Source: a virus. From it: a stretch of 64,000 nucleotides of DNA. The stretch covers positions 36,502 to 100,501 of the IMG/VR virus record IMGVR_UViG_3300042907_001518. One strand, 5' to 3'. The notes below the pieces were generated by a model, which ran no database searches, was not told the DNA's origin, and worked only from the letters and a program-made list of their open reading frames with translations. Position numbers and translations under genes: made by a program. Of the stretch, positions 32,193 to 47,162 are shown in pieces; the stretch's first letter is position 1; each line of letters starts with the position of its first letter.

Positions 32193-32816
32193 TTACTTAT
32201 TCCTAGACCAATTTACTTTATTATTTTTTCTTAAATTATCTTTTGCCCATAGAGGTTGTAAATTAGTATAATGAAAACATTGTTTCTGTTGCTGTGGATT
32301 ACTTAAATTAAAACTTGTACAAGGTCTAATGTGGTCTATGTGCCACCCATGATAACCATAGTTCTTCCAACTCATACCTTTTGTAAATTGTTTTTCTAAA
32401 TAGCCCCTCAACTGCTCAATAGAACAACCAACTAAATTTAATGTGTTTTCAGTTTTTATGTTACCCAGTATTGCAGAACGAACACGTCCCCTCAAATTTC
32501 TAGCCAGTTTAAAATGAATATCTGTTTTTAGTCTTTCTTTTTGCTGAAAATTTCTTTTTTCTTTATTTGCCTTTTGCCATTTTTTATTTAAAATACTTCC
32601 TCTTTTTTTATATAATTCTCTATGTGCTATAATTTTATCTTGATTATTTATTCGATATTCTTTTTTTTTGTTTAATATTTGTGTTTTATTTTGTAATTGA
32701 TATTCTTTAATACATAGTTTACAACGACAACATAATCCGTCTTTTAGTTTAATATTTTTATGAAATTCCGATAAAGTTTTTTTTAATTTACACTTACTAC
32801 AAACTTTCTTTTTCAT
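32193..32816 (-). CDS. HNH homing endonuclease, antisense insertion
   Basis: N-terminal CxxC..CxxC; C-terminal GMSWKNYG..WHIDHIRPC..FHYTNLQPLWAKDNLRK. Confidence 0.85.
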   Translation of the reverse strand: MKKKVCSKCKLKKTLSEFHKNIKLKDGLCCRCKLCIKEYQLQNKTQILNKKKEYRINNQDKIIAHRELYKKRGSILNKKWQKANKEKRNFQQKERLKTDIHFKLARNLRGRVRSAILGNIKTENTLNLVGCSIEQLRGYLEKQFTKGMSWKNYGYHGWHIDHIRPCTSFNLSNPQQQKQCFHYTNLQPLWAKDNLRKNNKVNWSRNK

Positions 32817-35476: not shown

Positions 35477-36669
35477 ATTTAGAAAATGATTTATTAAATT
35501 CAGAACATATGAAAAATAAGTGCAAAACAAGCGATGTTTATTCACAAAATTTATACGCTGCTTTATGTAATAACCGATTCTTTTATGGAGATAAAGAGTG
35601 GACTTGTTCTTGGCGATATTCTGGTGGTATAATTGCTGATATTAGACAAGAGGGCGAGTACATTAGTTGGTATTGTAGCGGTATAGTATCAGATATTGAT
35701 GGTTATGTTGGGGAGGGTGAAGTTACTGATGAAATTAAATTAGACTTAATTAAAATTGGATGGATAGTTAAGCCATATGAGTCTAAACTGGAGAATAAAA
35801 ATGTCTGAGGAAAACCTACCAGATACCAAGATTCCTTGGTGGGATAATCACTATGAAGATGTTTATAGTGAAGACCCTGAAGATGGATACCCTTATGACA
35901 TGGGAAGTAAGGTGCAAGAATGACTACTGGTTGGACATATCGCATCCTTAAAAAAGAAGACCAATATGGACTATATCCAGTATTTATTGACGATAACCAA
36001 GATGTTGTAAACATTCATAATATGCCGGTTTACTTAAATGATAGTTTACCAGACTTACTGGCCGTACAAAATAAAGCAGGTATACCACTGCCTTCTTTGA
36101 TGAAAGAGGCTTGGGATTATCCTGTTCTTGATTATAGTTCTGGAGAAGAAATATAACATGACGTTTGAAGAATTTATACTTAAAGTAGAAGAGACTTTTG
36201 TTAACAATCAAGCCTCTGCTAATCACTGGAGATATGGTCAAACAGTAATGAATGTTCTTTGGGATATTTGGCCCGAGAAACATAATGAAATTAAAGATAG
36301 TGATTTTAACTGTTTTTATACTAATCGTAATGTTGCTATGGTTCTAAATAAATTAGAGAAAGAATGGCGATGAACAGAGATATAAATTCTGATAAAGATT
36401 TTAGTATGAGTGTGGATGAATACTTATCAACCTACAAACCCGGCCCTTTCATCCCCTATGCCGTCTACAACGCTCACAGAGACTCTATAACGGTCTATTT
36501 TAAAAAAGATAGGGACTACACACAGCCATTAAACGACGCCTTAGAACTGCATTTATCGCAAGAGACAAATGAGATAGTAGGAGCGACTATTTTCAATATC
36601 AAGAAACTTTGTGAGAAACAAGATGAAACTAACTAATCAAGACTTACTAGATTTTTACAAAGAGGAAGC

Positions 36670-44837: not shown

Positions 44838-45691
44838 GTTTAAATCAAGAGCAAAGAGATCAATTTAATAGATTGATTGACTATAAAGACGACATATCTC
44901 ATGCTCTATTTCATATTGAAAGAATTTTAAAAACATATTTTCCAGAAGAATTTGAAGTCGCCTATCAGCACTGGATTCCACAAATTACCACAGCACTATA
45001 TGAAGATAGTAGGTGGCTACCTAGAGGCGAAAGAAATATGCAACAGACTATTAGCCATTTAATGGATAAATTTGCTGCTGATTCTGATAGGGGTGTATCT
45101 AAATATATCAAATGATCTTGGAGTATAAAAATGTCAAAAGTTTATGCTATTACTAATTTGGATGGATATTCAGCAGAAATGAGGAAAGCCGCTGCTGATG
45201 CTTTGTGTGACAATAACACAGAGAATCTGGATGACTATATTAGTCTGTATCAAATGAAGGGATTGGTGGAAGAACACTGTATTGGATATGATAATCAAGA
45301 CCACCCTTTGCTTAATGAAGAAACTAGTGAAATGATTTTTGAAGAAGCAACAGTGTGGATTAATAATGTGGGTCTTGCAAAGTTGGCTGGAAAAGATTTA
45401 ATTGAGTGTTCTTTTGATGATGAGGTTAATGATTTTATTTTCTGGTCAAAAAAGAAAGAGACAGAATCAAATGATCAATCAAATAGACATGAAGATATGG
45501 GAAATCAAAAATAAAATAGCAGATATTAGAGAATACATTAGTTCTGATTTTTGTACTAATTGTGTACAGATGTATAAACAAAGAGAAGTCTTAGAAAAAG
45601 AACTCAAGGAATTAGAATCACAAAAAAATCAATCGTAACACTTTGATTCAAGTATTGACACTGTTGTGTCGATCATGTATAATACAATCAT

Positions 45692-45765
45692 GGGGCGTTG
45701 CCGCCGGTAGTGGCACATACTCTTATAAGGTATTCAAAAGGTTGGTTCGACTCCAACACGCCCTA
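45692..45765 (+). tRNA. Atypical tRNA-Ile(TAT)
   Basis: GGGGCGT/ACGCCCT acceptor; ATACT-CTTATAA-GGTAT anticodon arm; GTTGG-TTCGACT-CCAAC T arm; non-canonical D arm. Confidence 0.7.
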
Positions 45766-46076
45766 TTAAGGAGACTATAAATGTTAAACAGATCAGTTCA
45801 TATGCCATATTACTGTATTCTAATTGGTTTGCTTTCAATGTCGGTAGGATATAATATTCTATTTTGGAATCGTATTCAGATACTTACAGTTAAGCAATCT
45901 TCCTCTTGGGTTACTCCACAAGAAATGCAACTTATTCAGCAGGAAATTGAGCGTTTAGAAAGAGGCTCGGTCAATTTAAATAATAATTAGTGTACTAACT
46001 TAGAAGGGTGCGTAAAGGTTTCGACTACATAGATAGAATTATATTAGCAAGTAGTGGTTGATCTAAGGGCCACTAG

Positions 46077-46699
46077 TTGTTTGGTGTTTCTTTAAAAATT
46101 TTACCCGATCAAAACCCGATTTGGTGTATTTCACTTTACAATCAAACTCTGGTGAGATCAAATTATGGAGGATTTAGTTCAAAAAATATCAGAAGAATAT
46201 CTTAGCGGCTTAAGTATACATAATATAGCCAAAAATCATAATTTAAACTACAGTTTTGTAAGATATCATTTGGTAAAAAATAATGTTTATAAGCCAAATT
46301 CTAAATTCAAAAAGAATGGCAAAATTACTTGTAAACTTTGTAATAAAAAATATCCTGAAAAAGATATGCCAAAAGATTATCAAAGGTCTGGTAGAAGATT
46401 ATGTAAAAGTTGTCTTGGTAGACATCAGTTAAAATACAATATGAAGAAACTGGGAACAACAACAGAAGTTTATGATGAACTATATTTAAAACAAAATGGC
46501 ATGTGCGATATTTGTGGTAATAATATTGGCCATAAAACAGCAAAGGGTTTGGATGCAAAATTAGCACTAGATCATTGTCATAAAACAAATAAAGTTCGTG
46601 GCTTATTATGTAATAAATGCAATAGATGTCTAGGATATGTAAATGATGATTTGAACTATCTCCAAAATATGTTAGAGTATTTAAAGAAACACCAAACAG
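46077..46699 (+). mobile_element. Inverted-repeat-bounded homing endonuclease insertion in tmRNA pseudoknot 1
   Basis: TGTTTGGTGTTTCTTTAAA (46078-46096) is the exact reverse complement of TTTAAAGAAACACCAAACA (46680-46698). Confidence 0.8.
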
Positions 46700-46704
46700 A
46701 TTAA
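46165..46704 (+). CDS. Endonuclease VII-family homing endonuclease
   Basis: QNGMCDIC..LALDHCHKTNKVRGLLCNKCNRCLG; N-terminal HTH and CxxC. Confidence 0.9.
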   Translation: MEDLVQKISEEYLSGLSIHNIAKNHNLNYSFVRYHLVKNNVYKPNSKFKKNGKITCKLCNKKYPEKDMPKDYQRSGRRLCKSCLGRHQLKYNMKKLGTTTEVYDELYLKQNGMCDICGNNIGHKTAKGLDAKLALDHCHKTNKVRGLLCNKCNRCLGYVNDDLNYLQNMLEYLKKHQTD

Positions 46705-47162
46705 AAATAGATCAAATGCTTTAACTGGCAATACTCAGTTAGCACTTGCTGCTTAATTAAATAACAGCAACAATCTTAGAAAGCGATGAAGGTAGCGTTC
46801 AAAAGATTGATGTAAAATCCTTCGGCTGCTAGGATAGCCAACGGGTTCTAGCCTGAGACTAGTTGGTACGGGAAGATGAATGTTGTTTGTTCTTTAATCT
46901 TTCTCAAAATTTATGAACATAATAAACTTGTAGAATGTATAGTTTGATATATGCTAGGACGCGGGTTCGATTCCCGCCGCATCCACTTAATGAAAGGTAT
47001 AATATGAGTTTCTGGAAAAAAGTATTAAAGAAATTTAAGAAGCAACAAGACCATGACCCAAAAGGATTGATAGAAGATAAATATTTTCATAAACTACAAA
47101 AAAAACTAGATAAATTAGAAGATCAACCAAAAAAGAAAAAGAAATGAAAGAACTATTTTAAC

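Follow-up and report, generated by a model that had tools for sequence, protein, structure and literature searches.

The stretch of DNA analysed here, called the window below, comprises 64,000 nucleotides (positions 36,502 to 100,501) of the IMG/VR record IMGVR_UViG_3300042907_001518, a 100.5-kb contig of an uncultured virus estimated to be 73% complete. On its plus strand, the window carries a transfer-messenger RNA (tmRNA) gene, at 46006-46986, that is interrupted within pseudoknot 1 (pk1) by a cassette encoding a homing-endonuclease-type protein. Positions given without a locus name are those of the window.

The 5' exon of the tmRNA (46006-46075) is defined by the start that ARAGORN calls once the insert is deleted and by alignment with 67 insert-free alleles. 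It begins with the 5' strand of the acceptor stem (GGGTGCG, 46006-12), followed by the D-loop-like GGTTTCGAC and then by the 5' strands of helix 2. It also holds stem 1 of pk1 (46053-57 with 46070-74) and the 5' strand of pk1 stem 2 (46058-65). The 3' exon (46701-46986) was delineated with ARAGORN, the Rfam family RF00023 and a helix model. It comprises loop 3 of pk1 (46701-07), the 3' strand of stem 2 (46708-15), the resume codon with the tag open reading frame (ORF) GNTQLALAA and its stop codon (46727-46756), helix 5, pk2 to pk4, the T arm (46961-77) and the 3' strand of the acceptor stem (CGCATCC, 46978-84). The acceptor stem has 7 bp including G3:U70 and, with the T arm, forms the tRNA-like domain typical of RF00023, as are the resume codon and tag. 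The partners of pk1 stem 2, TTGATCTA (46058-65) and TAGATCAA (46708-15), lie on either side of the insert. The order of the gene is the standard one, from 5' to 3'; the acceptor piece is not found upstream of the coding piece, as it is in permuted two-piece tmRNA genes. A preliminary description of the locus had placed the tmRNA 5' end, helix 2 and pk1 stem 1 to the left of the ORF, and all of them are there to within 1 nt. Its pairing of the two stem 2 strands is borne out, and the tag and 3' tRNA-like domain that it recognized are supported by ARAGORN and by the pairing with the 5' end.

The interruption misleads the usual detection tools. On the intact DNA, ARAGORN calls the tag GNTQLALAA with its stop codon and wrongly places the 5' end at 46551, inside the nuclease ORF. 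RF00023 aligns with 46675-46988 only and scores 33 bits against a cut-off of 47, missing the gathering threshold because the 5' part of the tmRNA is 626 nt away. When 46076-46700 is deleted, as the preliminary description had suggested, or when any of four neighbouring variants of this interval is removed, ARAGORN calls a tmRNA starting at 46006, with a length of 339-360 nt depending on the variant.

Scans of IMG/VR yielded 67 distinct uninterrupted tmRNA alleles of related phages, 350-358 nt in length. These insert-free alleles, which the preliminary description had proposed to look for, define the empty site: they read GGCCACT/TTAAAA, followed by stem 2, where the window reads GGCCACT-AG...GA-TTAAAAA-TAGATCAA. 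The insertion site was placed by eye and confirmed by the ARAGORN deletions. The insert, 625-626 nt in length, separates the 3' strand of pk1 stem 1 from loop 3. The intervening cassette (46076-46700, boundary +/- 1 nt, plus strand) is thus delimited by the empty site of the relatives. It has a GC content of 28%, compared with 36% across the window, is present in a single copy in the record and matches no intron model. A 16-mer from upstream of the tag matches 67 real tmRNA alleles, its sole interrupted match being the window's own record; none of the fetched relatives containing it is interrupted. A degenerate pattern for the right junction found no match in IMG/VR, neither the locus nor the surrounding 12 kb has a match in the GenBank phage collection, and no relative of the 5' untranslated region (UTR) of the insert was found in all fetched DNA.

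A pairing model of 15 helices and 94 pairs was written out for the phage clade on the window's own sequence. The window forms 94 of the 94 pairs, which include helix 2 and pk1 to pk4 as in RF00023. In the other 66 alleles, 71-100% of the cells in the model columns are paired and several kinds of pair occur at most positions, so that the model holds for the clade beyond the window alone. The window is at most 90% identical to any insert-free allele. Relative to the five nearest alleles, both bases differ in 4-8 pairs and one base in 2-6, and no pair is broken. Two of the double changes (G-C to A-U) fall in pk1 stem 2, the strands of which are separated by 640 nt. The decay of tmRNA helices relative to empty alleles, named in the preliminary description as a sign of a non-functional RNA, is therefore not seen.

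The ORF of the cassette (46165-46704, plus strand) encodes 179 residues and matches the Pfam family Endonuclease_7 (PF02945) with E = 2e-19. The protein is composed of a helix-turn-helix-like N-terminus, a CxxC...CxxC module and an endonuclease VII (His-Me) domain. The catalytic and metal-binding motif DHCH...CNKCN (DHxH...CxxCN) is intact and aligns with those of Hpy99I and T4 endonuclease VII. The nearest solved structures are those of these two proteins, Hpy99I being a sequence-specific His-Me enzyme, and PHROGs also places the ORF with endonuclease VII families. The stop codon TAA (46702-04) is built from bases of tmRNA loop 3. The endonuclease VII-type homing gene ending in the pk1 loop, as first described, stands.

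Seven further intact variants of the nuclease, 72-99% identical and from other assemblies, were found in a large protein collection, which makes eight intact variants in all. P0001 (90%) and P0002 (72%) are among the closest homologues, with P0056-60; this evidence is at the protein level. Variants of 181 residues end in ...DKK, which is exactly what the change T46702A and reading on into the AAAAATAG of the tmRNA would give. This match very probably places the 181-residue variants at the same tmRNA site. Scans of IMG/VR and of JGI metagenomes with the nuclease returned nothing above 53% identity, and ARAGORN found no tmRNA near those homologues of 53% or less.

The insert is bounded by a perfect 19-nt inverted repeat (46078-96 and 46680-98) that occurs nowhere else in the record, in agreement with the preliminary description, which had also noted that the right arm encodes the C-terminus of the nuclease. 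As RNA, the arms form 20 bp (46077-96 with 46680-99), an A.A mismatch and 6 further bp (46098-103 with 46673-78). The left arm (46077-46103) is non-coding and begins 2 nt after pk1 stem 1. The right arm (46673-46699) encodes the C-terminal residues ...EYLKKHQTD. Both arms, on the plus strand, were identified by complement searches, folds and duplex energies, and the right arm also by covariation. The YLKK tail is conserved in Hpy99I too, which suggests that any adjustment has to occur in the non-coding left arm. The arms were also considered as copies of a dispersed repeat, for instance promoter stem-loops, an idea rejected because they are unique in the record.

The closing duplex of the window has an energy of -34.0 kcal/mol, compared with -13.7 +/- 3.2 for shuffled left arms, well outside what chance would give. 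We compared the leader and the 3' end of the ORF in 119 other distinct endonuclease VII-family ORFs taken from contigs of viruses and metagenomes. Their longest perfect complements measure 6-11 nt, as against 19 nt in the window, indicating that the helix belongs to the cassette and not to the gene family. Against dinucleotide shuffles, the fold of the insert has z = -7.0 on the sense strand and z = -3.0 on the antisense strand. When the 981-nt precursor is folded as a whole, the rod forms alongside the acceptor stem, helix 2, the pk1 stem 1 hairpin and the T arm. Within the rod, minimum-free-energy folds predict a 5' UTR hairpin (46107-46159, plus strand) over the Shine-Dalgarno-like GGTGAG. 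The folds also contain a second long-range helix just past the start codon (46170-46183 with 46650-46663, plus strand), in which 12 of 14 positions are paired.

No recognized intron accounts for the insert. Rfam searches for group I and group II introns over 45900-47100 and 46040-46730 gave no match at E <= 10, and the cassettes of two bacterial loci described below (L482 and L483) matched no intron family either. The conserved group I core P3-P9 (RF00028) was thus detected in none of the three cassettes. Domains I-VI of group II introns were likewise not detected, and the sole ORF of the window's insert encodes the nuclease and not the reverse transcriptase usual in such introns. The bases U46074 and G46699 could be read as a group I boundary, with U before the 5' splice site and G as the last intron base, and the boundaries of L482 and L483 break this rule. 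The non-coding part of the insert amounts to 89 nt, in line with the figure of about 90 nt and the missing group I core of the preliminary description. A match to a group I or II model, by which that description would have been overturned, is found neither in the window nor at L482 and L483.

Using an alignment of the nuclease as query against one genome per prokaryote species, we found two full-length homologues. One is in a metagenome-assembled genome (MAG) of Gemmataceae (L482, 40% identity) and the other in a MAG of Planctomycetales (L483, 35% identity). In both, the order is tmRNA 5' end, pk1 stem 1 (...GTGGTTGATC-N4-GGCCACG), a leader of 33-34 nt, the ORF, CGGCGG-AAAAA and the stem 2 partner. 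After deletion of the insert, ARAGORN calls full tmRNAs with the tags AEPQLTLAA and AEPQFSLAA. The bacterial site is GGCCACG/(T)AAAAA and the standard tmRNAs of the family read GGCCACG/TAAAAA, so that the insertion site is the same as in the phage. The two loci keep pk1 stem 2 by different complements (GATCGGA/TCCGATC and GATCAGC/GCTGATC). Their exons differ by 22% and their nuclease proteins by 32%; among the three lineages, exon divergence is 10-22%. The genes next to L482 and L483 are of bacterial type, with Ser/Thr kinase, Macro and PARP domains at one locus and genes for an acetylesterase and a reverse transcriptase at the second. Directly 3' of the interrupted tmRNAs are a reverse transcriptase gene (L483:2331-3233) and Macro/PARP genes (L482:2448-3449); these downstream genes may belong to islands integrated at ssrA.

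Closing helices are also present in the two bacterial cassettes. That of L482 consists of 5 bp, one bulged A and 23 bp, with an energy of -62.2 kcal/mol (shuffled, -29.4 +/- 4.2); that of L483 has -55.4 kcal/mol (shuffled, -26.5 +/- 4.1). In both, the helix covers a Shine-Dalgarno-like GAGG/AAGG just upstream of the ATG. The arms are homologous in position and unrelated in sequence, AT-rich in the phage and GC-rich in the bacteria. The three inserts share no non-coding sequence, their non-coding parts measuring 33-89 nt. We anchored the right arms on the protein alignment, codon by codon. Between the window and L482, 17 pairs differ in both bases without loss of pairing, 11 are identical and 5 differ in one base; between the window and L483 the numbers are 17, 11 and 1. 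The position of the helix is thus kept and its pairs covary in the homologous cassettes. An unconserved or non-covarying repeat, which would have counted against the preliminary description, is not what is observed. The three cassettes therefore resemble the intervening sequences of rRNA genes: they are ribozyme-free, lie at a helix end or loop of a structured RNA and have a covarying closing helix of 26-28 bp, far more stable than its shuffled controls.

In the genomes of L482 and L483 (10.6 and 5.6 Mb), RF00023 exceeds its cut-off nowhere but at the interrupted locus; the remaining matches are below it and most are tRNA-sized. Ordinary tmRNAs with 115-170 bits are found in 128 of 151 sampled genomes of the same family. 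The proposal of the preliminary description that the insert is harmless gains support from these cassettes, as no tmRNA gene other than the interrupted one was detected in either bacterial genome. Within the order, 2 of 267 genomes encode the full-length nuclease, and no further carrier was found in 400 more genomes sampled from the phylum. This sporadic pattern is the one expected of a homing element, as is the occupation of the same precise junction in phage and bacteria. About 20 of the 151 Gemmataceae genomes (e.g. G037, G144, G248 and G112) have only tRNA-sized RF00023 matches. Some of them may be incomplete bins, and others could hide interrupted tmRNA genes to which the model is blind.

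The pk1 DNA of the phage clade (GTGGTTGATC-N4-GGCCAC, at 46046-46075 in the window) closely resembles that of Gemmataceae (L482:1417-1443, L572-L601). The tags are also alike, G-x-x-Q-L-A-L-A-A in the phage clade and A-E-P-Q-F/L-x-L-A-A in Gemmataceae. Together, the two resemblances point to planctomycete hosts for the phage clade, despite the phage GC content of 36%.

The cassette thus lacks an intron core, occupies a precise empty site between intact exons, has a conserved and covarying closing helix and interrupts the sole tmRNA gene detected in two bacteria. The explanation that we favour, with some confidence, is a free-standing homing gene of the endonuclease VII/His-Me type that is ribozyme-free, closed by a helix and lodged in pk1 of a tmRNA that stays functional. 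The nuclease gene would have invaded the tmRNA gene where the DNA codes for the stem 1/loop 3 junction of pk1, and the non-coding left arm would have been fitted to the final codons of the nuclease by base pairing. The 0.6-kb insert would then fold as a rod with a closing helix of 26-28 bp, extending from 1-2 nt past stem 1 to loop 3. In joining the two halves of pk1, this helix would let the tmRNA fold as if uninterrupted. According to the predicted structures, the same folds bury the ribosome-binding site or the start codon of the nuclease. The nuclease itself could spread by cutting the conserved pk1 DNA (GTGGTTGATC-N4-GGCCAC), common to the phage clade and Gemmataceae. From the sequences, we infer that the interrupted gene makes a working tmRNA.

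PK1 matters for tagging and, with helix 2, passes between the subunits and touches the A-site finger during translocation (PMC3968760). These contacts leave little room for a 0.6-kb appendage, which favours removal of the insert. By analogy with rRNA intervening sequences, it is probably excised by a double-strand RNase; our guess is RNase III, which would cut the closing helix without religation. The product would be a non-permuted two-piece tmRNA, whose 5' piece (~80 nt) and 3' piece (~290 nt) would remain joined through pairing in the acceptor stem, helix 2 and pk1 stem 2.

Several points weigh against this explanation. The count of 94 out of 94 pairs is inflated by a helix model drawn on the window's sequence. 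Intact exons in the phage alone are no proof of function, a phage tmRNA being probably dispensable. The covariation is based on three cassettes only. A comparison of the two strands of the closing duplex gave a mixed result, the sense strand being better in L482, about equal in the window and slightly worse in L483; this minus-strand control is equivocal and was not used as evidence for selection at the RNA level. Finally, both bacterial genomes are metagenome-assembled and a second tmRNA gene could be missing from the bin.

Other explanations have to be compared with a functional tmRNA from which the insert is removed. The insert might never be removed, a mature tmRNA of ~980 nt working with the rod protruding at the base of pk1 like an expansion segment. 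By virtue of the helix, the insert is indeed positioned at the outer end of stem 1, and loop 3 (UUAAAAA) follows it unbroken. The insert as a whole also folds into a domain of its own, and in E. coli a simple hairpin can stand in for PK1 (PMC3968760). Nevertheless, we find retention rather unlikely: a branched rod of 0.6 kb would probably clash, as PK1 and helix 2 contact the A-site finger (PMC3968760), and a perfect helix of at least 20 bp should be a natural target for double-strand RNases. One may also imagine that a recent selfish insertion has broken the tmRNA gene and that the helix only controls translation of the nuclease or stabilizes its mRNA. Hiding of the ribosome-binding site is a usual control of phage homing endonucleases and speaks for this possibility, as do the folds, in which each of the three cassettes has its Shine-Dalgarno sequence or start codon buried, the foreign composition of the insert and the possibly dispensable character of a phage tmRNA. 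However, every exon pair is kept, with compensatory changes across the insert, in three lineages differing by 10-22%, and in two bacterial genomes the broken gene would be the only tmRNA gene found. Moreover, the helix runs exactly from stem 1 to loop 3, limits that a purely translational element does not need, and none of the 119 free-standing relatives has such a helix. A broken gene is therefore unlikely.

An intron that escapes recognition, with a degenerate or novel ribozyme or with the assistance of proteins, would be excised with religation of the exons. Its boundaries could be U46074, before the insert, and G46699, the last paired base; a 4-bp P1-like pairing (CACU/GGUG) can be drawn, and the interior of the insert folds somewhat more stably than shuffles on the sense strand (z = -2.4). 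Yet the boundary bases differ in L482 and L483 (G...G), no intron family matches any of the three cassettes at E <= 10, and only 33-89 nt are non-coding, with no non-coding sequence shared among the three; we regard such an intron as highly improbable. The repeats might, lastly, act as DNA, either as transposon-like terminal repeats or as a cruciform cut by an endonuclease VII-type enzyme. They do flank an ORF of the Pfam family of T4 endonuclease VII, an enzyme that cuts branched DNA. This role is scarcely credible, as the nearest solved relative is the sequence-specific Hpy99I and the G.U pairs of the helix become A.C mismatches on the other strand. The element is also single-copy, with neither a target-site duplication nor a transposase gene as in transposons, and its presence at the same exact site in phage and bacteria is expected for homing and not for transposition.

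In this phage clade, small endonuclease VII-family genes have a hot spot at the tmRNA gene (e.g. L026:2574-2918 and L419:3406-3834). A gene of ~114 codons lies downstream on the same strand in 47 of the 67 relatives and starts 1-10 nt past the tmRNA 3' end in 14 of these 47. A different gene is found just upstream of the tmRNA in 3 of the 67, and at least 9 fully covered loci have neither. The tmRNA-adjacent nucleases of the relatives are 26-28% identical to the ORF of the window. Given this low identity and the extra N-terminal domain of the ORF, we rejected the idea that it is a displaced copy of the usual tmRNA-adjacent endonuclease VII of the clade. No other Endonuclease_7 gene was found in the window's own record. 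On the minus strand, a 254-residue frame is weakly similar (E = 9e-4, at 32697-32816) to the zinc-finger N-terminus of the tmRNA-adjacent nuclease of the relatives and may be another homing endonuclease. In many relatives, a small endonuclease VII gene is located between the tmRNA and a gene of 218 codons (PHROG 'ferredoxin'); at this position, the window has only a lysine-rich ORF of 47 codons (47004-47147) without family match. Upstream of the tmRNA gene, a perfect sigma-70 consensus (TTGACA, 17-nt spacer, TATAAT) directly precedes tRNA-Ile(UAU), within 45655-45766. This promoter could also drive a downstream ORF of 69 codons and the tmRNA.

These cassettes bear on the annotation as well as on the biology of tmRNA. 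The pk1 form defeats ARAGORN and Rfam, so that in the annotation of carriers the tmRNA is truncated or missing. Two bacterial lineages seem to rely on a tmRNA gene interrupted in pk1. A selfish nuclease gene would thus be able to inhabit an essential structured RNA without a ribozyme, by means of a helix formed against its own coding end. In the predicted folds, this closing helix may both restore the fold of the host RNA and silence translation of the nuclease. The cassette further ties an uncultured phage clade to planctomycete hosts and suggests passage of a homing endonuclease through a gene that they share.

A 2025 catalogue of 97,179 tmRNA sequences distinguishes standard, permuted and T-loop group I intron forms (PMC11915505). 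The intron forms amount to 883 unique sequences, of which 4% carry LAGLIDADG genes, the only intron-borne endonucleases detected; the authors allow that other sites may have been missed. As here, a mobile element that may encode a homing endonuclease resides in the tmRNA gene, which standard annotation tools miscall. In contrast, those introns occur at four T-loop subsites only, have a full group I core and are self-splicing, whereas the window cassette, located in pk1 loop 3, lacks such a core and encodes an endonuclease VII-family protein. Permuted two-piece tmRNA genes are known from Alphaproteobacteria, Cyanobacteria and others (PMC11915505). If the closing helix is cut, the mature tmRNA would similarly consist of two base-paired RNAs. 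Here, however, the order is not permuted, the break would be in pk1 and not downstream of the tag, and the intervening segment encodes a protein. In our full-text literature searches, we found no account of a pk1 insert or of an endonuclease VII gene inside tmRNA. It is possible, and we propose it tentatively, that these genes represent a fourth natural form of tmRNA gene, helix-closed in pk1 and with a two-piece product, whose cassette family moves between planctomycete chromosomes and phages, the pk1-coding DNA that both share serving as landing site.

Outside tmRNA, the intervening sequences of bacterial 23S and 16S rRNA are ribozyme-free selfish inserts in structured RNA genes, with a long closing stem, a possible ORF and a sporadic distribution. 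An example is the 428-nt ORF-bearing sequence in helix 45 of Coxiella burnetii 23S rRNA (PMC4990558; PMC11270868). They are cut by RNase III without ligation, and the host RNA is known, for rRNA, to function through its base-paired pieces. The present case differs in that the host is tmRNA, the ORF is a recognizable homing endonuclease and one arm of the stem is coding, cutting being proposed by analogy. Insertion sequences in the rRNA of bacteria of the candidate phyla radiation also encode homing endonucleases in structured RNA genes and match no intron model, group I or group II (PMC11270868). They are in rRNA, their endonucleases are mostly LAGLIDADG, and no closing helix covarying with an ORF end is described in that study. 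Among T4-like phages, the seg and mob genes are homing genes without intron or intein, and mobE splits nrdA of phage Aeh1, the two gene products reassembling (PMC2988022, PMC3045599). There too, a homing gene sits inside a functional gene whose product is rebuilt from pieces. The nrdA proteins reassemble by acquired interaction domains, whereas the RNA considered here would use its own helices and the helix of the cassette. The host RNA and the site are new for the combination of an intervening sequence with a free-standing homing endonuclease, which is present in phage and bacteria. Its closest analogues are the ORF-bearing rRNA intervening sequences and, on the protein side, mobE/nrdA of phage Aeh1 (PMC3045599).

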